From Aliarcobacter cibarius (GTDB taxonomy: Bacteria > Campylobacterota > Campylobacteria > Campylobacterales > Arcobacteraceae), in NCBI RefSeq assembly GCF_013372265.1, contig NZ_CP054051.1, positions 972,587 through 1,004,586 of the forward strand: 32,000 nucleotides of DNA. The letters are read 5' to 3'. Shown one piece after another: positions 3,182-25,847 of this stretch (position 1 is its first letter; each line of letters begins with the position of its first letter). Made by a program: the position numbers and the translations under genes. The notes beneath the pieces were generated by a model that saw only the letters and a list, made by a program, of their open reading frames with translations, was not told the DNA's origin and ran no database searches.

Positions 3182-3859
3182 TCAACCAGCATACTGAACC
3201 TTTGGATGTTTAAAAAAGTTAGCTACTTTTTGTGGATTATTTTGAATTGACAGCATATATTTTTCAGTATTATTTCTTAGTTCTTTTTGTGTTGTTGGCA
3301 ATTCATATTTATTAGCACTTTGTTTATAATCTTGATTTAGATATTCATCTGGATTATAATCAGGTGAATAAGCTGGAAGATAAAATAGTTTTATTTTATC
3401 TTTATTCTCTTCTTCCCATGCTTTTACTATCTTTGCATGATGAACTCTTAGGTTATCTACAATTAAAAATACTTTTTTACCACTATTTGAATCGATAACT
3501 TTTTTACAAAATTCTATAAAACTATCAATCTTTATAGATTCATCATATAGACTAAACATAGATTTGCCTGTATTTGTTATTGCACTAATCATATTTATCT
3601 TAAATTTTTTTGCAGTATGTTCTAATACTGGTTTATTATATGTACCAATAGGAGCATATCCTTTAAGATTATTTGCTAGATTTTGACAAGCTGTCTCATC
3701 ACACCACCATATATCTGCATTATCTTTTTTTGCTTCTTTTTTTATTTTTGGATATATTTCTTCTAACCAAGCTTTTGTTGCGCTATCTTTTCTCTCATAA
3801 GCTCTTTTTATTGGCTTTTTACTTGTAAATTGCCATTTACCCATACTAAGTTTCTCCAT
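3182..3859 (-). pseudogene. IS630-family (Tc1/mariner-like DDE_3) transposase, 5'-truncated (catalytic half only)
   Basis: 225 aa with WWCDETAC, LIVDNLRVHHAK and YSPDYNPDEYLNQD (the D, D, D/E triad context of IS630). The ~110-aa N-terminal HTH region is missing, and no ORF for it exists upstream (3860-4200, minus strand). Confidence 0.8.
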
Positions 3860-4604: not shown

Positions 4605-4961
4605 TTATGTGCTTAATACAGATAAAATAGCCAAAAATCCGATTATTGCAGCCGTAATACTTAAAATTAGTACCATTCCTGCTAGCATGTCTTTTATTTT
4701 ACCAATTTTTTCATGTAATTCAGGGTGTAAATAGTCAATTAAAGCTTCAATTGCAGAATTTAACAATTCTGAAGCAATAATCAATCCTATACATAAAATT
4801 ATCAAAGCCCACCAAAAAATGGAAATTTTAAAATATGAGAATAAGCATATTACTATTAGAGCTGAAATTAAATGTCTTTGCATATTATGTTCATTTTTAG
4901 TAGCATAAACAATTCCATTAAATGCAAATTTTAGTTTTTTCCATATTGATTGATTTTTCAT
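4605..4961 (-). CDS. dgkA: Diacylglycerol kinase / undecaprenol kinase family (DgkA, 3 TM)
   Basis: 118 aa. It has an N-terminal amphipathic KKLKFAFNGIVYATKNEHNMQRH, then three TM segments and the SELLNSAIEALIDY motif (E. coli DgkA: ELLNSAIEAVVD). Confidence 0.85.
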   Translation of the reverse strand: MKNQSIWKKLKFAFNGIVYATKNEHNMQRHLISALIVICLFSYFKISIFWWALIILCIGLIIASELLNSAIEALIDYLHPELHEKIGKIKDMLAGMVLILSITAAIIGFLAILSVLST

Positions 4962-4966
4962 AATTT

Positions 4967-5848
4967 TTACTTTAATTTAATATATTTTTTGTAATTTAAC
5001 CATTCATATAAGCTAACTGCAATTACAAACCATAAAGCACCAAGTAATAATCCTGCCATTACGTCTGTTATATAATGAACACCAATAATAATACGACTAG
5101 ATGCTAACAATAATGCAAAAGTACTACCTAAAAAAGTTATTATAATACGAATGTTACAACTAGTTTGACGTCTCCACCATATATAAAATAATAAAGCATA
5201 AAATGCTATGCTAACAGCTGCATGTCCACTTGGAAAAGAGGGAGTGTGTTCAAAAAAGATTGCCTCAACTGGACGTGAACGTAGGAAAAAATATTTTGAT
5301 AGCCATACATTAGATATAGCTCCAAAAACACTTATTATTAAGGGCATTGACCAAAAATAATTGTATTTAAAAATCATTATTAAAGATATTATAGTTAATA
5401 AAGAAAAAACAGTTTCACCGTTTCCAAATAAAGTTATGTAATGAAAAAAGTTTACAATTGATTCTGTTCTAATTAATGCAACATTTTTTGCAACCCAATA
5501 GTCTATTTGAATAATAAAATCTTGTTCAATAAACTCTTCAGTAACACCTGAAAGTAGAAAAAATAAACTTACAAATATAATAGAAGCTAAAGTTAAATTT
5601 AATCCACTCAGTTTACTATTATCAAAACGTTGTATTAAAAAATCTCTAGTTTTTGGGAAAGGAATTAATAGTTTTCTAAAAAATAAACGATATTTTCTAT
5701 ATATATTTTTACAAAACTTTGTAATTTCACATCCCCAATAAAACATAATCAACCAAAATATAAACCAAATTATTACAAAAAAATAACCTATATATTTAAT
5801 TATAAAAGTACTGTATTCTTGAATCCATGATAATATAATTTGATCCAT
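4967..5848 (-). CDS. PAP2-family membrane lipid phosphatase
   Basis: 293 aa, polytopic. It carries the PAP2 signature blocks KYFFLRSRP (KxxxxxxRP), SFPSGHA (PSGH) and SRIIIGVHYITDV (SRxxxxxHxxxD). Confidence 0.85.
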   Translation of the reverse strand: MDQIILSWIQEYSTFIIKYIGYFFVIIWFIFWLIMFYWGCEITKFCKNIYRKYRLFFRKLLIPFPKTRDFLIQRFDNSKLSGLNLTLASIIFVSLFFLLSGVTEEFIEQDFIIQIDYWVAKNVALIRTESIVNFFHYITLFGNGETVFSLLTIISLIMIFKYNYFWSMPLIISVFGAISNVWLSKYFFLRSRPVEAIFFEHTPSFPSGHAAVSIAFYALLFYIWWRRQTSCNIRIIITFLGSTFALLLASSRIIIGVHYITDVMAGLLLGALWFVIAVSLYEWLNYKKYIKLK

Positions 5849-5860
5849 TGTTGATTCCTA

Positions 5861-7243
5861 TTAAGTGTAAGTTTTGTTAAATGATATGGTCACTGTTGTT
5901 TCAATATTTTCTTTACTTTCTATGGTTATTTGTCCTTTGTGAATATCTACTATTTTTTTTAGAATTGACATTCCAAGTCCTGTACCACCTGAATTTTTAT
6001 TTCTACTTTTATCTGTTCTATAAAATTTTTCAAATATATTTTTTTGTTCATTAAGTGGAATTCCTATTCCAAAATCTTTAATTGAAATATTTAATAATCC
6101 ATCTTTTTCAAATATTTTAACTATGACTTTTGAATTTTCAAAGCTAAATTGAATAGCATTTTTTAAAACATTTTTTATTGCGATTTTTAATAAATTTGAA
6201 AAACCAAAAAATTCTAAATTATCTTCAACTTCAAAAACTATTTCAACTTTATGAAGTTTTGCAAAATTTTTTAGTTCATTTATTGATTCATCTACAACTT
6301 CATCTAGATAAAAAAATTCTTTTCTATCTGTAATAATCTCATTTTCATTTTTAGCTAAAAATAATAAATCATTTATTGTTTGCTCTATTCCAGAAAGTTC
6401 ACATAATGATGTATTTATAGTCTCTTTGTATTCTTCTATACTTCTATCTTTTCTTAAGGCTATTTCTAATTCACCTTTTATTATTGTAAGTGGTGTTTTT
6501 AATTCGTGAGATGCATCTGAACTAAACTGAGAAATTTTTTCAAAAGAGTTTTCAAGTCTAGATAAAAGATTGTTGATTTCATTCACTAATTCAGAAATTT
6601 CATCTTTTATTTCTCTTGGTTTTAATCTAGATGATAAATCATTCGCATTTATTTGTTTTAATTCAAATAAAATATTTCTAAAAGGATAAAATGATTTATA
6701 AATTATGAAATTTCCTCCAATAACAGCAAAAATCAGAATTATTGGAAAGATAAAATATAGTATATAAAGAAGATTTTCTAGAGTTGTTGTTATAACATCT
6801 TTTGTTGTAATAGCTTCTATAATTACGGTTTGTTCATTATGATAATTAATTTTTATTCTACTTATAAAATAGTTTTTTTGCTCTTCAAAGCTTATAGTAT
6901 TTGATTTTAAATTAGATAAATATTTTTCATTATTTATGATATCTTTTGGAAAATTATCTGTTTGAATTATTTTTTCAAAGTTTTTATCATTTAAAATTCT
7001 AATGAAAAGTGGTTCGTATTTGTACTCTTTTTCTTCATCTAAAAGAGCATCTAAAATTTTATTCTTTTCTTGTAAATCATCTGTTATATCAAGAATTATA
7101 ACTTTTAGAGTTGCTTCAAGTTTATCTATAGTTGAAATTTCTATAGCTTTGTATAAAGAAAATGAAAAAATTACTAAAACAATAATTTGGATTAAAAAAT
7201 GGTAGGCTAAAAGTCTTTTTTTTATTGATAAATTAATCTTCAC
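5861..7243 (-). CDS. Sensor histidine kinase (two TM segments, ~140-aa periplasmic loop, HisKA + HATPase_c)
   Basis: H-box SSDASHELKTPLT, N-box VLKNAIQFS, G1 DFGIGIP, G2 GGTGLGMSI. It overlaps the upstream RR gene by 11 nt. Confidence 0.9.
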   Translation of the reverse strand: MKINLSIKKRLLAYHFLIQIIVLVIFSFSLYKAIEISTIDKLEATLKVIILDITDDLQEKNKILDALLDEEKEYKYEPLFIRILNDKNFEKIIQTDNFPKDIINNEKYLSNLKSNTISFEEQKNYFISRIKINYHNEQTVIIEAITTKDVITTTLENLLYILYFIFPIILIFAVIGGNFIIYKSFYPFRNILFELKQINANDLSSRLKPREIKDEISELVNEINNLLSRLENSFEKISQFSSDASHELKTPLTIIKGELEIALRKDRSIEEYKETINTSLCELSGIEQTINDLLFLAKNENEIITDRKEFFYLDEVVDESINELKNFAKLHKVEIVFEVEDNLEFFGFSNLLKIAIKNVLKNAIQFSFENSKVIVKIFEKDGLLNISIKDFGIGIPLNEQKNIFEKFYRTDKSRNKNSGGTGLGMSILKKIVDIHKGQITIESKENIETTVTISFNKTYT

Positions 7244-7901
7244 TAATTTTAAATCCTATTCCTCTTATAGTTTTAATAAGCTTTTTATCAAAATCTTTAT
7301 CTATTTTATTTCTAAGTCTATAAATGTATACATTTACAATATTACTTATATTTGAATCTTCAAAAGATGATAAGGCTTCATTTATTGTTGTTTCACTTAA
7401 AACTCTATTTTTGTTTTTAATTAAATATTCTAAGAGTGAAAACTCTTTTGCTGTTAGAGGTATATTTTTATTTGCTCTAACTGCTGTTTTATTTAACAAA
7501 TCAAGTTCTAAATCTGCTATTGAAAGCTTTGTTGATAAAGAGTTTGTTGTTCTTAATTGAACTCTAATTCTTGCTAATAGTTCAGCAAAAGAAAAAGGTT
7601 TTGCTAAATAATCATTTGCTCCTATATCTAAACCTTTTATTTTATCTTCAATTGAATCTTTTGCAGTTAACATAATAATTGGAGTTTGAATATTTGAACT
7701 TCTTAAACTTTTACAAACTTCAATTCCATCTTTAATTGGAATCATAATATCAAGCAAGATGAGGTTATATTCATTTACACTGGCAAGGTATAGACCATCA
7801 TCTCCATTTGTAGCAAAATCTACTATATAACACTCTTCTTCTAAACCTTTTTTTAAAAAGTTTATGATTTTTAAATCATCTTCTATTATTAATATCTTCA
7901 T
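7233..7901 (-). CDS. OmpR/PhoB-family response regulator
   Basis: The receiver has IIEDD, LILLDIMIP (phospho-Asp) and LTAKD..KPF. The C-terminal winged helix reads LTAKEFSLLEYL...IRGIGFKI. Confidence 0.92.
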   Translation of the reverse strand: MKILIIEDDLKIINFLKKGLEEECYIVDFATNGDDGLYLASVNEYNLILLDIMIPIKDGIEVCKSLRSSNIQTPIIMLTAKDSIEDKIKGLDIGANDYLAKPFSFAELLARIRVQLRTTNSLSTKLSIADLELDLLNKTAVRANKNIPLTAKEFSLLEYLIKNKNRVLSETTINEALSSFEDSNISNIVNVYIYRLRNKIDKDFDKKLIKTIRGIGFKISED

Positions 7902-7905
7902 AAGA

Positions 7906-8637
7906 CTATTCTACTGTTTTTGAAATTAATTTCAAAATAGTTATTTCTGCTTTTGCTTTATATCTAAAATCAACACCCCAAGTTCCAATTCCTTTATTTA
8001 CATAAATTGCTGTATTTTTTCTGTAAAAAAGCCCTGATAAAAATGGTTGAACAAGTTTTACAAAATAGTGAAAAGGGTAAATTTGACCACCATGAGTATG
8101 TCCACATAAAAATAGATTAGAATTTGATTTTGTAGCTATCTTATAATCTTTAGGTTGATGAGATATAAAAATAGAAGGAGATTGTTTTAGATAATTTTCT
8201 ATTATTTCTTCTTCTCTTTGGATTTTAAAAAATTTTGAAAATCTATCAGGAAGTCCAGCAATATAAATATTTTCATTTTTATGATTAATTGTAAAAATTT
8301 TATTATCCATAAAAATAAAATTTTTAAGTTCATTTTTTAAATCTTCTAATCCATAAAACAGATCATGATTCCCACTTATATAAAAAACCTTATTTTTTAA
8401 TTGACTTAATATAGATAGTTGTTCTTTAATAAATTTTACTTTAGTATCAATTATATCACCAGTAATAACACAAAAATCAAATTCTAAATCATTACAAAAC
8501 TTAATTAATTTAGCAATTTTTTCAGTTGAAGTTTTTTTGTTTATATGTAAATCACTTAAATGAAGAATTTTTAAATCATTTAATTTTTTATTTTCAATAT
8601 CTATTTCTACTGTTTGAAAAATATTTTTAAAATTCAT
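7906..8637 (-). CDS. Calcineurin-like metallophosphoesterase
   Basis: Motifs are ILHLSDLHI (DxH), ITGDIID (GD), ISGNHD (GNHD/E) and CGHTHGGQ (GHxH). Confidence 0.85.
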   Translation of the reverse strand: MNFKNIFQTVEIDIENKKLNDLKILHLSDLHINKKTSTEKIAKLIKFCNDLEFDFCVITGDIIDTKVKFIKEQLSILSQLKNKVFYISGNHDLFYGLEDLKNELKNFIFMDNKIFTINHKNENIYIAGLPDRFSKFFKIQREEEIIENYLKQSPSIFISHQPKDYKIATKSNSNLFLCGHTHGGQIYPFHYFVKLVQPFLSGLFYRKNTAIYVNKGIGTWGVDFRYKAKAEITILKLISKTVE

Positions 8638-9089
8638 TTTAATAAATTACCTAATTCATTTGCAGATGATAGAAATTTTATATCTTTTACTATTCCATTT
8701 TCTAAAGAGTAAGTAGTTATTTTATCAGCTTGCTTTGCAAATTTTGTATTGTTTTCATCATAAATTAATAAAATGCCATATTTATAATCTCTTAATTTTG
8801 GAAGTATAAACATCTTTGTGATAATTGTTGGAGTTGATGAAATATTGTTTATAAAAATCGCACGATGTTCTTTTAAAAACAGTGAACTCTTTGATGATAA
8901 AAAGTCATTTACCATCATAAGAGTCTCTTTTTGGAAAGTTATAATTATTGTTTCAATATTATTAGTAATAGTATGAATTCCATCAAATTGATCTGTTAGA
9001 GAAAAATTATTTAATTTATCACCAACTTTCAAATTTCCCCCAAATATAAAGTTTGTAGTAATCATCAATAATATAAATATCTTTAACAT
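8634..9089 (-). CDS. Hypothetical exported protein (signal/anchor peptide; Cys-free, possibly YtfJ-like thioredoxin fold, weak)
   Basis: 151 aa with a hydrophobic N-terminus, MLKIFILLMITTNFIFG. There is no cysteine, so it is not a redox-active thioredoxin. The layout is loosely like YtfJ/HI0045. Operon context supports it as a coding region. Confidence 0.55.
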   Translation of the reverse strand: MLKIFILLMITTNFIFGGNLKVGDKLNNFSLTDQFDGIHTITNNIETIIITFQKETLMMVNDFLSSKSSLFLKEHRAIFINNISSTPTIITKMFILPKLRDYKYGILLIYDENNTKFAKQADKITTYSLENGIVKDIKFLSSANELGNLLK

Positions 9090-9092
9090 AAT

Positions 9093-9617
9093 CTATCTTT
9101 TCAGATATATTTTGTATGTAATATCTATTTGATTTCTAACTGTTAATAATAACATTGAAGGTGGTTCTAAATTAAAATCTGTAAGATTGAAAGAAAATTT
9201 CCCGTCAAGATATATTTGATTGTTTTTTTCACTTATATCACTTTTAACAGTAATCTTTTTTGAAATACCATTTAGTGTTATAACTCCATTTATATCGTAA
9301 TTTATTTCATTTTTTACAATACTTTTTATTTCAAAAGATGTTGATTCAAATTTATCTACATTTAAAAGCTTGTACATATGCTCATCTCTATCTTTTTTGT
9401 CACTTATAAGAGTAATCGTTTGAAAATAAATTTTACCTTTTATTGATTCTAAGCTATTTTCTATCGATAGTTCACCTTTTAAATTTCTAGTAATAGGATT
9501 AATCTGACTATCACCAAAAATCTCAGTATGAGCCATAAGTGCTCCACTTGATACTGATAAATTTTCTGCATATAAACCAATACACAAAGCCAATGTAAGA
9601 ATTAGTTTTTTAAACAT
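9093..9617 (-). CDS. YceI-family periplasmic (polyisoprenoid-binding) protein
   Basis: 174 aa with signal peptide MFKKLILTLALCIGLYA. YceI-like blocks are present: GELSIEN..., INGVITLNGISKKITV. AAGGAG RBS upstream. Confidence 0.7.
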   Translation of the reverse strand: MFKKLILTLALCIGLYAENLSVSSGALMAHTEIFGDSQINPITRNLKGELSIENSLESIKGKIYFQTITLISDKKDRDEHMYKLLNVDKFESTSFEIKSIVKNEINYDINGVITLNGISKKITVKSDISEKNNQIYLDGKFSFNLTDFNLEPPSMLLLTVRNQIDITYKIYLKR

Positions 9618-10578
9618 ATTTAATCTCCTTATTATTTAATGTATATTCTTTGTTGATTACTTTAAAGATTGCTAATAAAATTATAATTGGAACTATAAAT
9701 ATCATATTTGTTAATGCTACTAAAAGTCCAGTACCGGAAGCCATCCATCCAATAAATATCATAAATAATGAAATAGTTCTAAAATCTTTTTTTCTAATAG
9801 ATTGAAGAATCACAACATTGTAATAAGATATTACAAATGGATAAACTAGTGATAAAATAAACCCTTCTCTTAAAAAATATAGAAGATATGAAAGAGCAAA
9901 AAGTATTAATATAAATAATTCATTTTGATTTTTTTCCATTTTAAAATATAAAGCACAAACTAAACCAATAACATGAAATAAAGCTATTTCAAAAGTAAAA
10001 CCACCTCTCCAAATAGAAACTGCTAAGTCTCTTGAAAGTGATTCAAACAAAGAAGAGTCTAAAAATACCCATAAAACCATTATTAATAAAGAGTGATTTG
10101 GACTAATCAAACTTTTTTCTTCTTGATTATTTTGAGGTAAAAATAACGAACAAATTAAAGTAATTGATGTAAGTGTAACTGCAATAATTTCTCTTTGAGA
10201 TACTTCATAATTAAATAAAATAGTTCCTGTTACATAAGATAAACTTAGAGCAAAACCTAATTCTATTAAAGAAGTTTTTTTAACTTCATTTATTATCATT
10301 GGAGCCATACTACCAACAGTGAAGCCTAAGAGAAATAGTGTCAAAAAATTGTAATTTGGATACATAAAACTCAAAATAAGTTGAGCTATTAAAAATAGTG
10401 TTATTTTATTGTTTATTTTTATATATGAAATTAATAAAGAACCAATCACTCCACCAATAGGAAGAGGTGCTATTAAAGACAAGTTTGATGAAAAATATTC
10501 AACAACCCCAGTTTGAGCTATAAGTAGATAATAACACAACTCACTAGCTATAAAAAATATCAATATTAATCTTTGCAT
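9610..10578 (-). CDS. Hypothetical polytopic membrane protein (~10 TM)
   Basis: 322 aa, almost entirely hydrophobic helices. AAGGAG RBS 5 nt before the ATG. I recognise no family motif. Confidence 0.7.
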   Translation of the reverse strand: MQRLILIFFIASELCYYLLIAQTGVVEYFSSNLSLIAPLPIGGVIGSLLISYIKINNKITLFLIAQLILSFMYPNYNFLTLFLLGFTVGSMAPMIINEVKKTSLIELGFALSLSYVTGTILFNYEVSQREIIAVTLTSITLICSLFLPQNNQEEKSLISPNHSLLIMVLWVFLDSSLFESLSRDLAVSIWRGGFTFEIALFHVIGLVCALYFKMEKNQNELFILILFALSYLLYFLREGFILSLVYPFVISYYNVVILQSIRKKDFRTISLFMIFIGWMASGTGLLVALTNMIFIVPIIILLAIFKVINKEYTLNNKEIKYV

Positions 10579-12137
10579 AAGTACTCCTTTGATTGAAAAA
10601 AGATTAAATAAACGAAAACAAATGTTAGGTCGAAAAATGAAATTAAAAGAGCTTCAATTCCAAGTTTTCCTGAAGCATATAAGGCAAAAAACATAGAACT
10701 AGCAAATATTCTAATAACTACACTAATTTTTGTTAAAATATTCTCATAAGCTTCATTTTTTAGAGCAAAGTATTGAATAATTCCTGTCATACTAACGAAA
10801 GTAAAAACAACATATTCATAAATTCCACTAAAACCAAATCCCAAAATTGGATATAAAAAACTAGCAAGAAGTATTAATAAAATTCCACCTAATCCATCGC
10901 TTAAAACACCCATTAAATTATAAAAACCTAATTTTGAATAAGATGTTTTCAATTTAATAAATGCAAATATAAACCCAAATGCAACAAAACCAAATATTGT
11001 TCTAAATATCCATAAATTATAAGTAGATATTGAAGTAAATCCAGCTTGTGAAAAACCAGAAATAGAAAGAACAAAAAATATTCCTAAAATTCCAACTAAA
11101 TATATATTTATAAATTTTGCTACATGAAGTTCTTTTATATGGTTTATAAACATAGCTATAACCATAAAAAATACTCCAATTCCCATTGCAACATGAGCAT
11201 GAGCAACTATTAAATCATTTCTATGAAACAACCATCTAATTTCAGGAATAAATAAAATATTTCCTTCTATGTCAACAAATAAAAAAGCCAAGATTGAAAT
11301 TAAAAGAGTTCTTTTAGCAACATTTGTGATATTACTATCTTTGTACCATCTATATAAAAGAGGAATATATAAAAGAGTTAGATATTGAGCAAACCACTCT
11401 TGATTGTATGTTAAAGGTTCAAAAAATATTCTATAAAGAACAGTTAAGAAATAAAATATTGTTGGAATAATCCATAAAATATTCCATCTAGCTTTAAACT
11501 CTGTAATGTTTAAAAGCTTTATGATTAAATAATATATAGGAATTAAAGCTAAGCTCATACCTAAAGTGTTGTCTCCATGAGGACCACTTACTGTACTTTC
11601 AACTTGACCAATAGTTGGATTCATTAAAATTAAAAGAGCAATAGGAGCAATGATTACAATTTGTAAACATACTTTTATCCATAAAGGAAGTATCTTGTAA
11701 AGTTTTATAAATTTGTATAGAGCCAAAATATAAAATAATCCTGCAAATGCTAGTAAGAAATTTAGTTCATAAGCAAAATCATAAAATGCTAAACCTCTAT
11801 TTTTTCCTAAAAGTAGTGAAAATATCATGAAGATTAGAAAAATATACCAAATTTGAGTGTAGATATTTAGATATTTTAATCCCTCTTTAGAGATACCAAC
11901 CTCTTTATTTATAAGTAAAAAAGGAAGATATGAAAGCATTAAAGGAACAAATCCATAAAGCATCAAACTAATATGTACAGCTCTTAAATTTACAGGATTT
12001 AATGTTTGTGAATCAATAACAAACCCCAATAAATTAAGTGAATAGGCAATTCCAAAAAATAGTCCAATTGCAAAAAATGCAATAGATATTTTAAAATGTT
12101 TGTTTATAAAGTTTTCAAAATTAATTGATTTTTCCAT
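10566..12137 (-). CDS. Heme-copper oxidase subunit I-like membrane protein (divergent; lacks helix-VII HH)
   Basis: 523 aa, 12+ TM segments. [25 protein letters not shown] aligns with aa3-type helix IX-X [38 protein letters not shown] aligns with helix II [30 protein letters not shown] compares with helix VI GHPEVYILILP. There is no HH pair anywhere. GAGG RBS upstream. Confidence 0.65.
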   Translation of the reverse strand: [523 protein letters not shown]

Positions 12138-12744
12138 CTTTTACCTCATAAATTTTTGTAGCAAAATTTGCTAAATTTTTATCGTGAGTTGCCACTATTA
12201 TAGTAACTTGCTCTTGACTTAGTTTTTTAAATATTTCAAAAACATTTAAAGAATTTTTTGAATCTAAATTTCCTGTTGGTTCATCTGCAATTATTACCTT
12301 TGGTTTATTTATTAAAGCCCTAGCAATAGCAACTCTTTGTCTTTGCCCTCCTGAAATCTCATTTGGATATTTATTTGATAGATTGTCTATTCTTAAAATT
12401 TTTAATAAGTTGTAAATTTCATTGTCTGTAGCTTTTTCGTTAGCTATTTTTATATTTTCTTTAACAGTTAGATAGTTTATTAAATAGTGAAATTGAAAGA
12501 TGAAACCAATATTTGTTTTTCTAAAATCATCAATATCTTTTATATTCTTATAATTTAAATTTTCAAAAAACAGTTCACCTTTTGTTGGTTTTAATAGAGT
12601 TGAAACTATTGATAAAAGAGTAGATTTTCCGCTACCACTTTCTCCAACTAAACATACAAATTCACCTTTATTTATCTCTAAATTTATATTTTCAAGAGCT
12701 TTATCATTGTTATAATAGTGAGTTAAATTTTTAACTTTTATCAT
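12121..12744 (-). CDS. ABC transporter ATP-binding protein (MacB/LolD/FtsE-like)
   Basis: Walker A GESGSGKST, Q-loop, signature SGGQRQRVAIARAL, Walker B VIIADEPTGNLD, H-loop ATHD. Confidence 0.93.
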   Translation of the reverse strand: MIKVKNLTHYYNNDKALENINLEINKGEFVCLVGESGSGKSTLLSIVSTLLKPTKGELFFENLNYKNIKDIDDFRKTNIGFIFQFHYLINYLTVKENIKIANEKATDNEIYNLLKILRIDNLSNKYPNEISGGQRQRVAIARALINKPKVIIADEPTGNLDSKNSLNVFEIFKKLSQEQVTIIVATHDKNLANFATKIYEVKDGKIN

Positions 12745-13823
12745 ATTTTATTTCCTTGTATTAAAAGAACAGGATCTGTTTTTGCCGCATTTAATGCAGG
12801 AATTATTGAACCTATAATTGCCATTAGAATAGAGGCTAAGAATATATAAACAGTTAAATCTAAACTAATTTCTCCATTTACATAACCTTGTAAACTATCT
12901 ATATTTTTTATAAAAAATAAGACAATATTTGAAAGAATAAATGCACAAATGAAGCTAAATATTCCGATTAGAAAGCTTTCAATTATTATTGAATATACAA
13001 TTTTAGAAGTTTTTATACCCAAAGCTCTTTTGATTCCAAATTCACTTTTTCTTTGATTTACTGTGATGCTCATAAGGCTTACAATTCCAAGTAATCCAAG
13101 GAAAAAAGCTATAAATGAAATAACATTTGATGATGTTTTTATAATTTTAAATTGATTGTAGTTATCCACAAAATTTTGAGTAGATTTAACATCAATATCT
13201 TTTGATAAAGTTTTTATCTCTTTTATAATCTCTTCAACATCTGAATTTAAAGCTGTATTTACTAAAATCATTGAAGCTGATTTATTGAAAATTTCTCCAG
13301 CATCTGATATATTTAAAACAATTCCACCATTTTCAAATCCTATTTCACTTTCAAAAACACCAGAAATTTTAAAAGTTTTATTTGCAATTTGAACTTCATT
13401 TCTATTTGATAGTTGTTCAAAAATTGATTTCCCAACTATAACTTCATTATTTAAAGGATATTTTCCTTTTTCTAATTTATAATTTTTAAATCTATTTTGA
13501 GTTACTCCATAAATAGCTACAATAGGGAGTTTTTCTACAGGACTTGCTCCTACTGTCATAGCTCCTGCTTCATTTATATTTTTTAAATACTCTATTTCTT
13601 TAATTAAATTAATATCAACATTTGAAAAAAATGTATCAGAAATTTTTGCTTGAGTAATTATTATGTCACCATCACTTTTTAGCATTGATGAGTACATAGA
13701 GATTACTCCATTTGAAATAGAACTTATTAAAAATATTGAAACAATAGAGAATATAAGACTTATTATGATTAAAAATGTTTTTAACTTGTTTGCGATTAGA
13801 GCTTTGTAAGCGTGTGAAATCAA
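12741..13823 (-). CDS. ABC transporter permease, FtsX/MacB type (4 TM with large periplasmic domain)
   Basis: 360 aa. TM1 is followed by a ~200-aa extracytoplasmic domain and then three C-terminal TM segments (FtsX-like). Ends with ...TDPVLLIQ. TTG start preceded by AAAGGAAAA. 4-nt overlap with the ATPase gene. Confidence 0.85.
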   Translation of the reverse strand: MISHAYKALIANKLKTFLIIISLIFSIVSIFLISSISNGVISMYSSMLKSDGDIIITQAKISDTFFSNVDINLIKEIEYLKNINEAGAMTVGASPVEKLPIVAIYGVTQNRFKNYKLEKGKYPLNNEVIVGKSIFEQLSNRNEVQIANKTFKISGVFESEIGFENGGIVLNISDAGEIFNKSASMILVNTALNSDVEEIIKEIKTLSKDIDVKSTQNFVDNYNQFKIIKTSSNVISFIAFFLGLLGIVSLMSITVNQRKSEFGIKRALGIKTSKIVYSIIIESFLIGIFSFICAFILSNIVLFFIKNIDSLQGYVNGEISLDLTVYIFLASILMAIIGSIIPALNAAKTDPVLLIQGNKI

Positions 13824-13860: not shown

Positions 13861-13892
13861 AATATGAATTCTTAATGAACTAAATATGAATT
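13861..13892. promoter_or_regulatory. Direct repeat AATATGAATT x2, 22-bp phasing, in divergent promoter region
   Basis: Copies at 13861-13870 and 13883-13892, 38-70 bp upstream of the operon start codon (13823). This geometry suits an OmpR-type regulator, but no binding data exist. Confidence 0.3.
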
Positions 13893-13910
13893 TTTGTTCA
13901 TAAAAGAGTT

Positions 13911-14003: not shown

Positions 14004-15338
14004 ATGATGAAACGAATGAAATTCTCCTTTTTAATGATTTTGGTAGTGCCTACTATTTTATGGTTACTAGCAGATACTCTTTATCCAGAGCCTTTTACAT
14101 ATTTTGCATTTCGTAAAGTATTTATTCAATATAGTGGTGTCTTAGCAATAATACTTATGAGTATTGTAATGATTTTAGCTCTTCGTCCAAAATTTATTGA
14201 GCCATATTTTGATGGAATAGATAAAATATATAAACTTCATAAATGGTTGGGTATTTCAGCTTTCTTATTAGGAGTTCTTCACTGGTGGTTTGCTAAAGGT
14301 ACAAAATGGATGGTTGGTTGGGGTTGGTTAGAAAAACCAGTAAAAACACCATCTAATGAAGTATTAGGAACAATTGAAGCTTGGTTTAAAACTCAAAAAG
14401 GTCTTTCTGAGAGTGTTGGAGAATGGGCATTTTATATAATGGTTATTCTTATATTTATAGCTTTAATTAAAAAAATTCCATACCATTGGTTTGTTAAATC
14501 TCACAAGATTTTTGCTTTGGTTTATATAGCTTTGGTTTATCACACTATTATTCTTACAAAAATAGGTTATTGGTCTGAACCAATCGGGTTACTACTAATT
14601 GTAATGATGGTTTTTGGGACTATTGCTGCATTTATTTCTTTATTTAAAAAAATAGGAAATAGTAGAAAATCTCAAGCTAAAATAGTAGATTTAGTTGAAT
14701 ATCCAAAACTTAAAATACTAGAAACGACTTTACTTTTAGATGATACTTGGAAAGGACACAAAGCAGGGCAATTTGCTTTTGTAACATCGAATAAAAAAGA
14801 GGGACATCATCCATATACAATTGCTTCATCTTGGGATAAAAATGATAAAAAAATGACTTTCATTACAAAAGCACTAGGTGATCATACAAGTAGATTGAAA
14901 GATACTTTAAAAATAGGAATGAATGTAGAAGTTGAAGGACCTTATGGCTGTTTTGATTTTGGAGATGATAAAAAATTACATATTTATATAGGAGCTGGAA
15001 TAGGGGTAACACCATTTATTGCAAGAATGAATGATCTTGAAAAAAATCCAAATGATAAAACTATACATTTTTTCCATTCTACTTCTAAACCTGATGATGA
15101 ATTTCTAGAAAATTTAAAAGAGGATGTAAAAAATTCTAATGTTAATTTACATTTATTTGTAAGTAAAATTGATGAAAGATTAAGCTCTGAAAAAATTAAA
15201 GAGTTAGTACCAAATTGGCAAAATTCTAGTATTTGGTATTGTGGACCACTTAAATTTGGGCAAAGTTTAAGAGAAGATTTTGTCTCAAGTGGTTTAAATC
15301 CTGAAGATTTTCATCAAGAACTATTTGAGATGAGATAA
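14004..15338 (+). CDS. NOX/FRE-family flavocytochrome: ferric-reductase-like 6-TM heme domain fused to FAD/NAD(P)H-binding domain
   Basis: Two His pairs with 13/12-residue spacing sit in TM helices (LHKWLGISAFLLGVLHWW; SHKIFALVYIALVYH). Also present: FAD motif HPYTIASS (HPFT-type), GPYG, and nucleotide motif GAGIGVTPF. Confidence 0.85.
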   Translation: MMKRMKFSFLMILVVPTILWLLADTLYPEPFTYFAFRKVFIQYSGVLAIILMSIVMILALRPKFIEPYFDGIDKIYKLHKWLGISAFLLGVLHWWFAKGTKWMVGWGWLEKPVKTPSNEVLGTIEAWFKTQKGLSESVGEWAFYIMVILIFIALIKKIPYHWFVKSHKIFALVYIALVYHTIILTKIGYWSEPIGLLLIVMMVFGTIAAFISLFKKIGNSRKSQAKIVDLVEYPKLKILETTLLLDDTWKGHKAGQFAFVTSNKKEGHHPYTIASSWDKNDKKMTFITKALGDHTSRLKDTLKIGMNVEVEGPYGCFDFGDDKKLHIYIGAGIGVTPFIARMNDLEKNPNDKTIHFFHSTSKPDDEFLENLKEDVKNSNVNLHLFVSKIDERLSSEKIKELVPNWQNSSIWYCGPLKFGQSLREDFVSSGLNPEDFHQELFEMR

Positions 15339-15441
15339 TTTATAGAATAAATTTAAATTGTAAAGAAATTGTCAACAAATCTTACAGTGAAAATTTAAGT
15401 TGTTTTTTTAGACTTCCAAAAATAAAAAATGGAGTCACAAA

Positions 15442-15939
15442 ATGGGTTTAAATATTGATTTAAAAGTTATAAGAGTTGGTCTTTTAATAACTTTGTTTAC
15501 GTTAATTTTTGGTACAGGTTTAGGAATTGTATTTGGAGCAAAAGAGGAAGTATTTAAAAATTATATTTCTGAAAATATTCAAGCAAACCCTACTGTTCAT
15601 GACGACAAAAGTAAAGATAAAATTTGGAGATATGTTCAAAGAGCGCACTTCCATTCAAGTGGTATTGCTGCATATTCTTTAGCTTTGTTATTAATTATTT
15701 TAGTATCAAAAATGAAAGATAGTATGAAGTCTTTTAGTGCGACAATGATTGGTGTTGGTACTTTATACTCATTTGCATGGTATTTAATGTTCTATTTAGC
15801 TCCACTTATTGGAAGAGATGCTGCAAAAAATCACTTTTTAACAGAGTCTATTGTTTATATCAGTACGGCTGCTTTTGTAATAGGATTGTTTATGATAATT
15901 GCTAACGTATTTTTTAATATGTTTAGTAATGAAGATTAA
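15442..15939 (+). CDS. Hypothetical 4-TM membrane protein
   Basis: 165 aa. GGAG RBS 7 nt upstream. Contains RAHFHS at a TM boundary. No family recognised. Confidence 0.65.
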   Translation: MGLNIDLKVIRVGLLITLFTLIFGTGLGIVFGAKEEVFKNYISENIQANPTVHDDKSKDKIWRYVQRAHFHSSGIAAYSLALLLIILVSKMKDSMKSFSATMIGVGTLYSFAWYLMFYLAPLIGRDAAKNHFLTESIVYISTAAFVIGLFMIIANVFFNMFSNED

Positions 15940-15956
15940 AATCTTATAATTAAAAG

Positions 15957-15987
15957 TTAGTATATAGCTATTTGGGCTATATACTAA
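15957..15987 (+). terminator. Stem-loop terminator candidate
   Basis: TTAGTATATAGC-tatttgg-GCTATATACTAA is a perfect 12-bp stem, 18 nt after the stop codon, followed by an A/T-rich tract. Confidence 0.6.
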
Positions 15988-16089
15988 TTAAAATTTCTCA
16001 CAAAATAATCCTTCCCTATCACATCAATAAGTACAAAATCATATTTTAAATAGAGTAAAATTAGAAAATAATTTTTTAATAGGAAAAAT

Positions 16090-16536
16090 ATGAAATCAAT
16101 AATATTTGTTTGTCTTGGAAATATTTGTCGTTCTCCACTTGCAAAAGGAGTTGCTGAAAATTATATTAAAAATAATAACTTAAATCTTCTTGTTGATTCA
16201 GCTGGAACAAGTAAAGAACATCAAGGAGAAATTCCATGTGAGAACTCTATAAAAGTTGCTAGAGATAATAACATTGATATATCAAAATATAGAGCTAAAC
16301 AATTTTTAAAAAGTGATATAGATAAATTTGATTTAGTCGTTGCATTGGATAGTAATAACTACTATAATTTAAAAAATATGGGATGCAAAAACTTAGTAAA
16401 ATTGGGAGATTTTGGTTTTGGTGGGAAAGATGTTCCAGACCCATACTATTTTAATGGTTTTGATGGCTTTATAGAAGTTTTTAATATGGTAGAAAAAAGT
16501 GTAAAGAATCTACTTTTATCCCTAGAAAATAAATAA
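16090..16536 (+). CDS. Low-molecular-weight protein-tyrosine phosphatase
   Basis: P-loop VCLGNICRSP (CX5R-S) at residues 8-15 and the general-acid loop DVPDPYY near the C-terminus. Confidence 0.9.
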   Translation: MKSIIFVCLGNICRSPLAKGVAENYIKNNNLNLLVDSAGTSKEHQGEIPCENSIKVARDNNIDISKYRAKQFLKSDIDKFDLVVALDSNNYYNLKNMGCKNLVKLGDFGFGGKDVPDPYYFNGFDGFIEVFNMVEKSVKNLLLSLENK

Positions 16537-16563
16537 CTGTAATCTTACAAATAACAGTTTTTA
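16535..16563 (+). terminator. Weak stem-loop plus T-run
   Basis: AACTGT-N13-ACAGTT followed by TTTT, overlapping the stop codon of the phosphatase gene. The stem is short. Confidence 0.3.
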
Positions 16564-16646
16564 AATAACATTTTATAGTTACCAAAAAATATTTTTTTCT
16601 ACTACAATACTTTTATTGCAAATATAAAAATATAGGAGGGTAAATT

Positions 16647-17093
16647 GTGCATATATTAGAACAAACTAGTTTAATAGATTGTACAGTTGAAGAGTTATTT
16701 AACTTTCATCTAGATACTAATAATATTAAATTAATTACCCCAAAACATACAAAAGTAGAACTTCTTAATTATGAAGACAAAACATATGAAGGTAAGTTAG
16801 TAAAGTTAAAAACTACAAGAGCTTTCATACCAATATATTGGATAGTAAAAATAGATAAGTTACAATATCCAAATTTATTAGTAGATGTAGCTCTTAAATC
16901 ACCATTTGCTTATTGGGAACATAGTCATATATTTACACAAAAAGAAACTAAGTGTGAATTAAAAGATGTTATTAAATTTGAGTTACCATTTGGAATATTT
17001 GGAAAAATATTGGCACCTTTGGTTAAAAAAGATATTAAAAATATGTTTGAATATAGACATTTTCAAACAAAGAAATATTTTGCTGAAAAGTAG
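16647..17093 (+). CDS. SRPBCC-superfamily (START/cyclase-like, COG4276-type) small protein
   Basis: 148 aa. GTG start behind a strong AGGAGGG RBS. The blocks PFAYWEHSHIF, DVIKFELPFGIFGKIL and FEYRHFQTKKYF match my recollection of this family. Confidence 0.65.
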   Translation: MHILEQTSLIDCTVEELFNFHLDTNNIKLITPKHTKVELLNYEDKTYEGKLVKLKTTRAFIPIYWIVKIDKLQYPNLLVDVALKSPFAYWEHSHIFTQKETKCELKDVIKFELPFGIFGKILAPLVKKDIKNMFEYRHFQTKKYFAEK

Positions 17094-17104
17094 AAAGGTT
17101 GTTT

Positions 17105-17641
17105 ATGAAAATTATATTAAGTGCGTTGTTTTTTATTACATTTTTATTTGGAGAAAATAGTATGAGTATATATGATATTGAAGTAAAAGATATAAATGGT
17201 AAAGTTGTAAGCATGTCAAAATATAAAAACAAAGTTATGCTTATTGTAAATGTTGCTAGTAAATGTGGTTTTACTAATCAGTATGAGGGATTAGAAGAGT
17301 TACATAAAAAACATTCAAATAAAGGTTTAGCAGTTTTAGGATTTCCATGTAATCAGTTTTTATCTCAAGAACCAGGAACTGAAGAGCAAATTAAAGAGTT
17401 TTGTTCTTTAACTTATGGTGTTGAGTTTGATATGTTTAGTAAAATTGATGTAAATGGTGAAAATACTCATCCTTTATATAAATTCTTGAAAGAAAATTCA
17501 AAAGGTGTTTTGGGAACAGAAGCTATAAAATGGAATTTTACAAAGTTTTTAGTTGATAAAAATGGTAATGTTGTAAAAAGATATGCTCCAAGTACTACAC
17601 CCAAAGAAATTGAAGCAGATATTATAAATTTATTAAAATAA
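17105..17641 (+). CDS. Glutathione peroxidase family (Cys-type), with signal peptide
   Basis: NVASKCGFT (active-site codon TGT at 17264-17266), LGFPCNQF, WNFTKFLVD. The track ORF starts at TTG 17099, but ATG 17105 sits 6 nt after AAAGG. Confidence 0.92.
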   Translation: MKIILSALFFITFLFGENSMSIYDIEVKDINGKVVSMSKYKNKVMLIVNVASKCGFTNQYEGLEELHKKHSNKGLAVLGFPCNQFLSQEPGTEEQIKEFCSLTYGVEFDMFSKIDVNGENTHPLYKFLKENSKGVLGTEAIKWNFTKFLVDKNGNVVKRYAPSTTPKEIEADIINLLK

Positions 17642-17648
17642 ATTAGAA

Positions 17649-17688
17649 AAATTAACTGTCAAGTATAATTTTATTTGACAGTTAATTT
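17649..17688 (+). terminator. Stem-loop terminator candidate (14-bp perfect stem)
   Basis: AAATTAACTGTCAA-N12-TTGACAGTTAATTT, 8 nt after the peroxidase stop codon. Confidence 0.6.
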
Positions 17689-17735
17689 AATAAAAATGTA
17701 ACTTTTTTGTTATTATTCTAGAGTATAATTTTGTT

Positions 17736-19112
17736 ATGAAAGAAAAAGTATATGTATTAGATACAAATATCATCTTACAAAATCTTCAAAATCTCTACAA
17801 AATATCAGACAATAAAACTAACCACATTGTTATACCTGAAACTGTACTTCTTGAACTAGAGGATAAAAAGAAGTTAGTTAATGAATTGGGTTACTATTCA
17901 AGAGAGTTTGCAAGATTATTAGCAAAGATGAAAATAAAAGAGGTTGATTATAAAACTGGATTTAAAGTTGTAAAACTTTATGATGAAGAACTAAATCTTG
18001 ATATTGTCTCAAAAGATAAGTATGAAACGCAAATTGAACAAATACATATTTCTGAATCAAATGATAAAAGAATTATCGAAGTAGCTTCTATTGCTCAAGA
18101 CTACTACAAAGGTTGTAAAACTATTTTTCTATCTTTAGATGTTTATGCTAGAACTTTTGCATTATTTAAAGGAATTAAAACAGAAACTTTACACGATGAT
18201 AAATCAACTGTTCCAAAATTTAATTTTGTAAAAAGTCTAAAAATAGATTCTTCAAAATTCAATAGTTTAGAGAATAAAGACATCTCATCTATAGATGAAA
18301 ATCATGAAATTGAGAATTTTTCATACTCTTTTGAAAGTGATGATGGAAATGTAGAATATGCAATCATTACAAATGGTAAAATCGATATTTTAAAAGAGAC
18401 AGATTTTAAAGCTTTAAATGTTAAACCTGTAAATTTAAAACAAAAACTTTTTACCAAAGCAATTTTAAGTGATATGTACGATTTACTTGTAATTGATGCA
18501 AAAGCTGGAAGCGGAAAAACTTTGATGTCCATTGTTAGTGCTATGAGATTGATTGATTTAGGATTATATGACAAAATTGTATATGTTAGAAATTCTATTG
18601 AATCATTGGATAAAGGTGCTGAGGTTGGATTTTTAGCAGGAAATGATGAAAAATTTAGAATTTATAATATGGCTTTATATGATACATTAGAATTTATTGC
18701 TAAAAAACATTTAAAAAAGAGCGAAAATAGAGAAAAACAAGAGTCAATAACTTCAAAGATTGAAGAGTTAAAAGCTAAATATTGTATGGAGACTTTATGG
18801 CCTGGAGAAGCAAGAGGACGAACTTTAAGTAGTTCAATTGTAATTATGGATGAGTGGCAAAATAGTAGTGAAAAAACTACTCAATTGATTCTTTCAAGAT
18901 TAGATGAGAGTTGTATGGCTATAATTATTGGTTCAAATAGACAAATAGACAATTTATATTTAAATAAATATAATAATGGTTTAACAACTCTTTTAAAACA
19001 GACTTCACAAACTCATAGTGAACTTAAAATGTTTGCAATAGAGCTTGAAAAAGCGGTTCGTGGTAAGTTTGCAGAGTTTACAGAAAGAATTTTTGAAAAC
19101 AAAAATCAATAA
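17736..19112 (+). CDS. PhoH2/YlaK-type protein: N-terminal PIN nuclease domain fused to PhoH-like ATPase
   Basis: PIN start KVYVLDTNIIL..IPETVLLELE..NDKRII. PhoH domain Walker A DAKAGSGKT, Walker B IVIMDEWQN, and a C-terminal RGKF block. Confidence 0.88.
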   Translation: MKEKVYVLDTNIILQNLQNLYKISDNKTNHIVIPETVLLELEDKKKLVNELGYYSREFARLLAKMKIKEVDYKTGFKVVKLYDEELNLDIVSKDKYETQIEQIHISESNDKRIIEVASIAQDYYKGCKTIFLSLDVYARTFALFKGIKTETLHDDKSTVPKFNFVKSLKIDSSKFNSLENKDISSIDENHEIENFSYSFESDDGNVEYAIITNGKIDILKETDFKALNVKPVNLKQKLFTKAILSDMYDLLVIDAKAGSGKTLMSIVSAMRLIDLGLYDKIVYVRNSIESLDKGAEVGFLAGNDEKFRIYNMALYDTLEFIAKKHLKKSENREKQESITSKIEELKAKYCMETLWPGEARGRTLSSSIVIMDEWQNSSEKTTQLILSRLDESCMAIIIGSNRQIDNLYLNKYNNGLTTLLKQTSQTHSELKMFAIELEKAVRGKFAEFTERIFENKNQ

Positions 19113-22277: not shown

Positions 22278-22420
22278 CTGACTTCATCACTTTTTCATAA
22301 TTATTAAAAAAATGGTCTCAAAAACTCGAATTCATGGGCCTCTAATTTTAAAATTGGGTGACCCACGATATAATTTTATATGTTTATACGTAAAATAAGA
22401 AGTTAAAATTGTAGTATTAT

Positions 22421-23881: not shown

Positions 23882-23924
23882 ATTATTATTTAAATCTCAT
23901 AAAATAAATCAAAAATATAATTAT

Positions 23925-25755: not shown

Positions 25756-25847
25756 ATTTTTGCTTAACAAATTATAATAGGTGAACTACTTCTTGGAATT
25801 ACTTCTCCAATAATTTTTGCATATCCAAAACTAAGTTCTTCAAGTTC
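25671..25847. repeat. Direct repeat copy 2 (identical to 22101-22277)
   Basis: See copy 1. This copy contains the functional 3' end of selD and a dead duplicate of the SLR gene 3' end. Confidence 0.95.

Follow-up and report, generated by a model that had tools for sequence, protein, structure and literature searches.

A conserved gene core joining a MacB-type transporter, a divergent haem-copper-oxidase homologue and a YceI protein in Campylobacterota: a possible envelope-defence operon

What could bring together, in a single run of genes, an ATP-binding cassette (ABC) transporter, a homologue of the haem-copper oxidases, a YceI-family lipocalin, a phosphoesterase, a two-component system and two enzymes acting on lipid phosphates? 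Such a run is found in Aliarcobacter cibarius, in a stretch of 32,000 nucleotides (nt) of contig NZ_CP054051.1 (positions 972,587 to 1,004,586), the whole of which we call the window: eleven consecutive open reading frames (ORFs) lie on its minus strand at 4605-13823. The original prediction, made from the sequence alone, had understood this cluster as one operon devoted to the handling of isoprenoid or phospholipid phosphates. Comparison with related loci leads to a different unit. Its conserved core consists of the permease and ATPase of the transporter, an oxidase homologue devoid of the CuB site, a partner with the fold of the major facilitator superfamily (MFS) and the YceI protein; a cysteine-less thioredoxin-fold protein of 151 amino acids (aa) and a cytosolic metallo-hydrolase are usual companions. 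As for its role, we tentatively propose a defence of the envelope.

The evidence for this core comes from 25 genome and 80 metagenome loci, 103 of them distinct, that encode relatives of the 523-aa oxidase-like protein; the counts for each gene take in only those loci with enough flanking sequence, and the 523-aa gene is present by design. The permease was found in all of 75 loci and the ATPase in all of 94, while the 322-aa MFS-fold protein is present in 84 of 85 and YceI in 79 of 81. The 151-aa protein (59 of 76), the metallophosphoesterase (59 of 68), the response regulator (44 of 64) and the sensor kinase (39 of 57) come next. The same gene order, with its tight overlapping junctions, is kept in about 100 independent loci where the identity of the oxidase-like protein ranges from 43 to 98%. 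In distant loci (43-52% identity), those of Sulfurovum type among them, the six genes for permease, ATPase, oxidase-like protein, 322-aa protein, YceI and 151-aa protein stand together in shuffled order, and the core stays one block despite this shuffling in L021 and L024-L026; in L021, L024 and L025 a cytosolic MBL-fold hydrolase takes the place of the metallophosphoesterase. A two-component system resembling CusRS, HprRS and PmrAB is joined to the core in most Arcobacteraceae. Aliarcobacter butzleri 7h1h has the nine genes that run from permease to kinase, with groESL next on the opposite strand, and in two loci where the oxidase-like protein is 97-98% identical to that of the window (L032, L033) the kinase gene is followed by unrelated ABC-3 transporter genes, with neither PAP2 nor DgkA. 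Outside two loci identical to the window (L001 and L002), PAP2 never follows the kinase gene (0 of 48) and a DgkA of the window type is never found (0 of 47). Because these two occur at no other locus, the unit is smaller than eleven genes: it is a core of five to six genes, extended to nine in Arcobacteraceae and in Sulfurospirillum arcachonense. Of the eleven-gene order first proposed, nine genes recur across loci and the last two do not; PAP2 and DgkA are strain-specific 3' additions.

In the window itself, the junctions measure, from 5' to 3' of the operon, -4, -17, -13, -8, +3, -4, +4, -11, +12 and +5 nt (negative values are overlaps); recomputation returned the eleven genes and the very spacings initially reported. 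It had also been claimed that no terminator interrupts the series, and indeed the scan found no terminator-like site within 4605-13823, the sole two being downstream, at 3865 and 4215. Most genes had been credited with an AGGAG-type ribosome-binding site of their own, which holds for part of them, a clear GGA(G) site being seen at only about six of the eleven. In this DNA of about 25% G+C the promoter scan gave 70 promoter-like matches for 86.7 expected from shuffled sequences; as such matches are no commoner than in shuffles, the scan neither shows nor excludes internal promoters. Over the cluster, the window is identical to contig VBUD01000037.1 of assembly GCA_005818975.1 (locus L001), and its closest named relatives belong to Aliarcobacter cryaerophilus, with a 322-aa protein about 90% identical. 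Pfam and NCBIfam profile searches of every product confirmed the domain assignments first made from motifs.

The 523-aa protein matches Pfam COX1 (PF00115) over profile positions 221-413 with 26.5 bits (E 3.8e-6). A relative, P0126, aligns to positions 5-404 of the same profile (E 8.9e-4), and a distant one, P0187, passes the gathering score with 36.3 bits and aligns to the 523-aa family (hhalign, 89%). As the score of the 523-aa protein itself is below threshold and these two relatives nevertheless align, its homology to the haem-copper oxidoreductase superfamily is likely and its membership unproven. Among 91 distinct sequences of the family, H55, H305, H313 and H315 are conserved in all, and H187 in 98%. 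By hhalign, FHRNDLIVAHAH falls upon LHDTYYVVAHFH of bovine COX1, over helices IX-X only, an alignment that would make H313 and H315 the helix-X ligands (H-x-H) and H55 the helix-II ligand of the low-spin and high-spin haems. The haem ligands thus appear to be retained, two haems are predicted, and H187 could be the helix-VI ligand of CuB or FeB. The remainder of the active site has a different character. In the 91 sequences there is no conserved histidine between residues 188 and 304, the helix-VII His-His pair of CuB being absent, and R236, Y244, E247, W248 and Q251 are invariant where that pair is expected; D189 is invariant too. This mapping of helices VI and VII was drawn from spacing and conservation, and not from structural alignment. 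All described haem-copper families keep their active-site histidines except gNOR, the first found to replace one (PMC11214002); with two of the three CuB/FeB histidines missing, the 523-aa family would stand outside all of them. It is a small family, for which 1.84 billion proteins clustered at 50% yield 68 representatives and some six clusters of full length. PDB sequence searches with the 523-aa, 322-aa or 151-aa proteins, or with their profiles, gave nothing useful.

The nature of the 322-aa protein had to be sought in its fold, as it has no Pfam, NCBIfam or PDB sequence match. Its AlphaFold2 (AF2) model (predicted local distance difference test, pLDDT, 89.8; predicted template-modelling score, pTM, 0.88) consists of two six-helix bundles, hence twelve helices in place of the approximately ten transmembrane (TM) segments counted earlier. 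Foldseek relates it to VMAT2, ENT1, G6PT and NorA (E 3e-5 to 1e-3, TM-score 0.55-0.68), and its top 50 PDB matches are MFS-fold or related transporters. E13, R129, D174, E179, R183, H202 and N254 are the invariant polar residues of the family, and point to a functional site. Some homologues bear the Joint Genome Institute (JGI) label of Brp/Blh beta-carotene 15,15'-dioxygenase; this label we rejected, as no Pfam or NCBIfam match appears even at E<=10 and the fold is that of MFS. The Brp/Blh family has four conserved iron-ligand histidines; H202 is the only invariant histidine here.

A deeper link between the two membrane proteins is provided by P0187, an oxidase-like protein 25% identical to that of the window, from a high-G+C organism represented by contigs L029 (1-3554) and L030. 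There the order is ABC ATPase, P0187, DUF4345 and a fused protein made of a 322-aa-like domain and a CcoO-type cytochrome c; the P0187 gene overlaps that of the upstream ATPase by 4 nt. The 322-aa family is homologous to the N-terminal membrane domain of the fusion (hhalign 86%, E 5e-6), whose C-terminus, with its CMYCH motif, is a monohaem cytochrome c of the FixO/CcoO kind. We can therefore understand the grouping of an ABC ATPase with an oxidase-like and a 322-aa-like protein as older than the Campylobacterota clusters, while the fusion to cytochrome c argues that the 523-aa and 322-aa proteins form a redox enzyme of which the latter is a subunit. It is accordingly probable, from sequence comparison, that the 322-aa protein is the partner subunit of the oxidase-like protein. 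A metagenome scan with P0187 returned no further loci, the known contigs being only about 3.5 kb long. P0187 lacks even the helix-VI histidine, and displays an HGHLSHH cluster instead.

With FtsX, MacB_PCD and ABC_tran all above cutoff, the permease and ATPase form a type VII (MacB-type) transporter. The permease, which starts with TTG, combines a single TM helix at the N-terminus with a periplasmic domain and an FtsX domain of three TM segments; its closest solved chains are MacB (2.8e-11), then Spr0695, YtrF and LolF/C/E, and HrtB chains give no match at E<=1. The ATPase resembles LolD, DevA and FtsE while remaining under every equivalog cutoff, and its gene shares 4 nt with that of the permease and 17 nt with that of the 523-aa protein. 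The pair does not reach the LolCDE equivalog level (lolCE 45.7 for 362 bits, LolD 200 for 308), and neither the eleven genes nor the cluster of A. butzleri include one for a MacA/HlyD membrane-fusion protein or a TolC-type outer-membrane channel.

On the periplasmic side, the YceI protein begins with a signal-like sequence and has PA0423 and E. coli YceI as its nearest solved relatives. Members of this family bind polyisoprenoids. For the 151-aa protein neither Pfam nor PDB sequences gave a match; its AF2 model (pLDDT 87.3) brings up Bcp, Tpx, ResA, FetE and Sco in Foldseek (best E 8.6e-7, probability 1.0). It has no cysteine at all in the window, and no invariant or near-invariant cysteine column in 32 homologues. 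Invariant in the family are Q34, K54, T56, P87, P97, K98 and Y102; in the model K54 opens, and T56 lies within, the helix that follows beta-strand 47-51, where the catalytic cysteine of redox-active relatives would be expected. The UniRef label "FAD/FMN-containing dehydrogenase" was discarded, having no profile support for a protein of thioredoxin fold. The phosphoesterase has all its metal-binding motifs (DLH, GD, GNHD, GHTH), scores 89.5 bits with YaeI and 82.8 with LpxG, both under cutoff, and is probably cytosolic, since it lacks a signal sequence. In some loci (L004 19765-20193, L006 14772-15179, and L056) the 151-aa gene is missing from its usual site; a paralogue 33-36% identical lies 2-3 kb downstream of the kinase gene, and a second metallophosphoesterase paralogue, 37-39% identical, 3-4 kb upstream. 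A yceI transposon mutant described in the literature (PMC12811638) concerns a different paralogue, adjoining cusA.

Table 1. Features of the window (positions within the 32,000 nt; aa, amino acids).
Feature	Position	Strand	Basis
MacB-type (type VII) ABC permease, 360 aa	12741..13823	-	FtsX 64.2 bits, MacB_PCD 56.3 bits
ABC ATPase, 207 aa	12121..12744	-	ABC_tran 126.1 bits
Divergent protein, likely homologous to the haem-copper-oxidase superfamily, 523 aa	10566..12137	-	COX1 match, conserved histidines
Membrane protein, compact 12-helix MFS fold, 322 aa	9610..10578	-	AF2 and Foldseek
Exported YceI-family lipocalin-like protein, 174 aa	9093..9617	-	Pfam YceI 58.7 bits (cutoff 23.7)
Exported thioredoxin/peroxiredoxin-fold protein without cysteine, 151 aa	8634..9089	-	AF2 and Foldseek
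Calcineurin-type metallophosphoesterase, 243 aa	7906..8637	-	Metallophos 55.9 bits
OmpR-family response regulator, 222 aa	7233..7901	-	Pfam Response_reg and Trans_reg_C
Sensor histidine kinase, 460 aa, about 130-aa periplasmic domain	5861..7243	-	HisKA and HATPase_c
PAP2 lipid phosphatase, 293 aa	4967..5848	-	PAP2 60.6 bits
DgkA-type diacylglycerol/undecaprenol kinase, 118 aa	4605..4961	-	DAGK_prokar 109 bits
Candidate operator of the operon's regulator	13864..13902	-	ATGAAC-N5-TTCAT, then TTCAT x3, 11-bp spacing
Ferric-reductase/NOX-type flavocytochrome, 444 aa	14004..15338	+	Ferric_reduct, FAD_binding_8 and NAD_binding_6

That the operon carries its own two-component system, as first suggested, is borne out by the profiles of regulator and kinase. 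The best family of the regulator is the heavy-metal one, TIGR01387 (256.8 bits, cutoff 279.2), before HprR (233 bits), and that of the kinase is TIGR01386 (260.1 bits, cutoff 292.55); with PmrA the regulator scores 180 for a cutoff of 330, and with PmrB the kinase 141 for 314. An alignment of 17 kinase homologues shows a conserved periplasmic motif, (D/N)E-x-x-E-(Y/F)K(F/Y)EPL. Upstream of the permease, 45-67 nt before its start codon, lies a candidate operator. OmpR-family regulators bind direct repeats at 11-bp spacing; the TTCAT direct repeats have this very spacing, from which we infer autoregulation by the encoded regulator. TTCAT-N6-TTCAT occurs three times in the window where 0.49 matches are expected, and in 73 of 80 related loci TTCA[TC]-N6-TTCA[TC] is found in the 150 nt that precede the permease gene. 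In L013, L014, L072 and L083, whose regulator gene follows a gap of about 60 nt, the same box also stands directly before that gene, and L078 has it upstream of eptA. The distant loci L021 and L024-L026, whose clusters do not include the window-type kinase and regulator pair, are without it.

Several observations surround this regulatory system. The third TTCAT-N6-TTCAT of the window (22283-22298, plus strand), with an ORF of 167 aa on one side and an IS4 transposase gene on the other, is probably due to chance. In L013, a metagenome-assembled genome of Halarcobacter ebronensis, the regulator seems truncated (14178-15681, a 143-aa ORF), and an extra stretch of about 1 kb separates its gene from that of the phosphoesterase; the disruption may be an insertion or a pseudogene. 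A protein of HD-GYP type (HD_5, C-terminal) of about 525 aa is encoded after the kinase gene, often overlapping it, in L083 (16331-17911), L072 (16333-17907) and L013 (17304-18884), and after the phosphoesterase gene instead in L078 (13754-15325), which hints at a cyclic-di-GMP output placed on the same sensor system in some lineages. In L024 (1994-5516) and L025 (6086-9448) the Sulfurovum-type clusters have as flanking neighbours a multihaem cytochrome of 561 aa, its domains resembling those of MtrC/MtrF, and a different two-component system.

What, then, would be the use of such an assembly? In Burkholderia, BcnA, a lipocalin of the YceI family, and LcoA, a two-haem cytochrome b561, limit the peroxidation of membrane lipids under polymyxin, norfloxacin or superoxide, and in the mechanism proposed for them the cytochrome reduces anew a quinone bound to the lipocalin (PMC9113575); BcnA captures antibiotics as well (PMC5350466). 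By analogy, the cluster may be an autoregulated envelope-defence operon, an expanded counterpart of the BcnA-LcoA system, a reading to which we grant somewhat less than an even chance. The kinase would sense an insult to the envelope on its periplasmic side, be it a cationic peptide, a metal or an oxidant, and the phosphorylated regulator would bind the TTCAT repeats, immediately upstream of the promoter, and turn on the operon, along with eptA and its own genes in some lineages. The oxidase homologue, with the MFS-fold protein as its partner, would make a membrane redox unit with two haems and no copper centre, which, as far as haem binding and electron path can be deduced from sequence, would move electrons from the quinol pool (or, in distant relatives, from cytochrome c) to a quinone or lipid radical held by YceI. 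The MacB-type transporter, deprived of an adaptor, would use ATP-driven mechanotransmission to extract a damaged or toxic amphipathic molecule from the outer leaflet, and YceI or the thioredoxin-fold protein would receive this molecule, in the way that LolA receives lipoproteins from LolCDE. It had been remarked at the outset that YceI might be paired with a membrane haem protein, and the YceI and oxidase-like genes indeed lie in one operon. We may go one step further and take the 523-aa protein, together with the 322-aa one, for a branch of the haem-copper superfamily not described so far, which lost its copper or iron centre, gained an MFS-fold subunit (in some lineages fused to a CcoO-type cytochrome c) and took an obligate type VII ABC partner. 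An ATP-driven extractor would then be physically coupled to a membrane redox enzyme, for the repair or detoxification of envelope lipids or quinones via YceI; this we regard as possible and rather doubtful.

Several facts weigh against the envelope-defence reading. The 523-aa protein, with its 26.5 bits, does not reach the COX1 gathering score of 34.8, and its haem binding is deduced solely from histidines. Having no cysteine, the 151-aa protein cannot be a thiol peroxidase, and a cytosolic phosphoesterase has no role in the model. The kinase and regulator pair remains under every curated equivalog cutoff, and about 30% of the loci with enough flank lack the two-component system. Finally, a literature search found no publication on the cluster, on its A. 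butzleri locus tags, or on the combination of YceI with a haem-copper oxidase.

The first alternative takes the oxidase homologue at face value, as an alternative respiratory or detoxifying reductase for dioxygen, nitric oxide, peroxide or another small oxidant, with the ABC transporter as a dedicated assembly or cofactor-delivery machine in the manner of CydDC for cytochrome bd or of NosDFY for N2O reductase, and with YceI and the thioredoxin-fold protein as periplasmic chaperones of assembly. In its favour, the oxidase-like gene always overlaps that of the ABC ATPase, even at 25% identity and with a CcoO-type partner; the haem ligands are conserved, H187, D189, R236, Y244 and E247 could line a new catalytic pocket, and the Sco and ResA types found among the structural matches of the 151-aa protein belong to a class that aids the biogenesis of oxidases and cytochromes. 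Yet two of the three CuB/FeB histidines are gone, while the described families keep them, gNOR with its single replacement excepted (PMC11214002), the Arcobacter clusters have no cytochrome c, CuA or quinol-site subunit, and the thioredoxin-fold protein has no metal or redox site made of Cys, His or Met. MacB-type transporters, moreover, are not known as assembly factors of oxidases. We consider such a reductase unlikely, if not negligibly so.

The regulatory genes lend themselves to another interpretation, a module for the homeostasis of haem, porphyrin or metals comparable to haem efflux by HssRS-HrtBA or to the iron system FetMP-FetABCDEF of Campylobacter, in which the sensor would detect haem or a metal, the transporter expel or import it, and the oxidase-like protein bind or buffer haem. 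The architecture of HssRS-HrtBA does match, with its OmpR-type system, its pair of permease and ATPase and its activation through direct repeats (PMC10368836). Regulator and kinase score best with the heavy-metal CusRS/CopRS subfamily and the ExxE motif of the kinase is conserved; FetE, a thioredoxin-fold protein encoded beside an ABC transporter in C. jejuni, is among the structural matches of the 151-aa protein, and a divergent neighbour in the window is a ferric-reductase-type protein. The permease, however, matches MacB, YtrF and Lol chains and none of HrtB, the 151-aa protein has neither the CXXC of FetE/FetF nor metal ligands, no metal-binding motif is evident in YceI, and the ferric-reductase neighbour is specific to the strain. 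As for the box of HssR, presumably GTTCATATT-N2-GTTCATATT, it may be close to the TTCATATT repeats of the window. A haem or metal module seems to us quite improbable.

The two genes at the 3' end carried much of the original prediction, namely the recycling of lipid carriers or phospholipid phosphates (undecaprenyl phosphate, diacylglycerol) with PAP2 and DgkA as integral parts. Their motifs are intact (KX6RP, PSGH and SRX5HX3D in PAP2), and with gaps of +12 and +5 nt and no terminator they are very likely cotranscribed here with the kinase gene; YceI relatives bind polyisoprenoids, and the phosphoesterase resembles LpxG and YaeI. The two genes are nevertheless missing from the other clusters, even where the oxidase-like protein is 97-98% identical, and dgkA is next to a transposase fragment in the window and to an integrase gene in L001. 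Where PAP2 or DgkA lies near other clusters it comes with EptA, which evokes the decoration of lipid A rather than carrier recycling: eptA-dgkA, or eptA-PAP2-dgkA in L068, is found within 0-3 kb of the cluster in six loci and in three arrangements, after the kinase gene and usually behind the gene of the HD-GYP protein, between the phosphoesterase and regulator genes (L014), or immediately upstream of the permease gene (L078). The DgkA of the window is only 29% identical to that of these cassettes, its PAP2 is likewise no close homologue of theirs, and no EptA-type transferase was found among the window ORFs of at least 110 aa, by Pfam scans or in the annotation of the identical L001. That PAP2 and dgkA keep company with phosphoethanolamine transferases is documented (PMC7559476, PMC10285318). 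We read this as an independent and repeated recruitment of lipid A or phospholipid-turnover genes to a putative TTCAT regulon, a recurrence that supports the idea of envelope stress and not a core theme of phosphate handling. The theme that was to unify the cluster rests on its accessory genes, and as a description of the conserved unit carrier recycling is largely refuted; we deem it very unlikely. The envelope-stress or antimicrobial-peptide module that had been envisaged at the same time gains in plausibility, with cassettes of EptA and DgkA, with or without PAP2, beside six loci and the box before eptA in L078. Finally, that unrelated membrane genes were simply packed together by genome compaction is hardly credible, for while their functions are heterogeneous and none reaches a curated equivalog cutoff, their order persists over identities of 98% to 43% and in several families of Campylobacterota, the core moves as a block, and overlapping start and stop junctions are conserved together with a common operator motif.

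The surroundings of the cluster in the window deserve a few words. A control region of 180 bp containing the candidate operator is common to the permease and to the divergent ferric-reductase-type gene, which occupies this position only in L001 and L002 and is a neighbour rather than a conserved part. In E. coli, hprRS is divergent from msrPQ, and the membrane domain of MsrQ is the same as that of this neighbour. Further on (15442-19112, plus strand) come genes that Pfam annotates, in the identical L001, as low-molecular-weight phosphatase, glutathione peroxidase and PIN/PhoH protein; they have an oxidative-stress flavour and are not conserved in other loci. One end of the window holds selA and tRNA-Sec (1244-2745), and a selD-like gene of the AIR-synthase family lies about 23 kb away (25764-26744), the interval containing, besides the cluster, a fragment of a DDE_3 transposase (3182-3859) and a tandem pair of IS4-type transposase genes (22505-25311). 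The A. butzleri cluster is elsewhere, between glmS and groESL, and that of the window may belong to an island-like or rearranged region adjoining tRNA-Sec.

If the 523-aa family proves to be a member, a branch without two of the active-site histidines would be added to one of the best-studied of enzyme superfamilies. Its link with the transporter, the MFS-fold protein and YceI gives a handle on two open questions, the function of YceI proteins and the way Gram-negative bacteria protect or repair the lipids of their envelope. The module occurs in the emerging food-borne pathogens A. butzleri and A. cryaerophilus, and in several lineages it is found beside lipid A genes of the polymyxin-resistance type, sharing its operator motif with eptA in one locus (L078). 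The hypothesis lends itself to direct testing, since the operator motif is defined and the nine-gene operon occurs in a species amenable to genetics.

It remains to place the cluster among known systems, bearing in mind that each of its components belongs to a known superfamily and that the idea of a lipocalin served by a membrane haem protein is already known. With the phosphoethanolamine transferase cassettes mcr-1-pap2 and mcr-3-dgkA (PMC7559476, PMC10285318) it shares the company of PAP2, DgkA and a transferase in L068, and the window pair adjoins remnants of mobile elements; unlike these cassettes, the window encodes no such transferase among its ORFs of at least 110 aa. With MacAB-TolC, LolCDE, FtsEX and HrtBA it has in common the FtsX domain, the MacB periplasmic core and a separate ATPase of LolD/FtsE type, while it differs from MacAB-TolC in having neither MacA-type adaptor nor TolC genes, its permease gene being coupled to that of the oxidase-like protein. 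PmrAB (BasRS)-EptA and CusRS/CopRS/HprRS likewise have an OmpR-type regulator, direct repeats about 11 bp apart and the periplasmic ExxE motif of the kinase, and eptA-dgkA, at times with PAP2, adjoins the cluster or lies under the same box in several lineages; the pair stands apart from both the PmrAB and the heavy-metal systems by its scores below the curated cutoffs, and its box differs in sequence from that of PmrA.

Two comparisons touch the core itself. The haem-copper superfamily, with its A, B and C oxygen reductases and its families cNOR, qNOR, eNOR, sNOR, gNOR and nNOR (PMC11214002), shares with the 523-aa protein the COX1 match, the helix-II histidine, the H-x-H of helix X and a histidine in the region of helix VI, and the distant relative P0187 has a cytochrome c partner of CcoO/NorC type. 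The 523-aa protein differs in having invariant Arg and Tyr/Glu/Gln in place of the helix-VII His-His pair, in its extra C-terminal helices, in a gene always set between those of the ABC ATPase and the MFS-fold protein, and in Arcobacteraceae clusters without CuA, cytochrome c or any known electron-entry subunit. In comparison with BcnA-LcoA, the haem partner would be a 523-aa protein of the oxidase superfamily with an MFS-fold subunit, and not a four-helix cytochrome b561, of which (Ni_hydr_CYTB domain) no gene is found in the cluster, a downstream one existing only in L013; the cluster, known here from its genes, adds an ABC transporter, a thioredoxin-fold protein, a phosphoesterase and a two-component system, and has no aldehyde reductase of PsrA type. 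What it has in common with BcnA-LcoA(-PsrA) of Burkholderia and with yceI-yceJ of E. coli (PMC9113575; PMC5350466) is a secreted YceI lipocalin without cysteine encoded beside a predicted two-haem membrane protein and, with the former, a link to the stress of polymyxin and other bactericidal antibiotics and to the lipids of the envelope.

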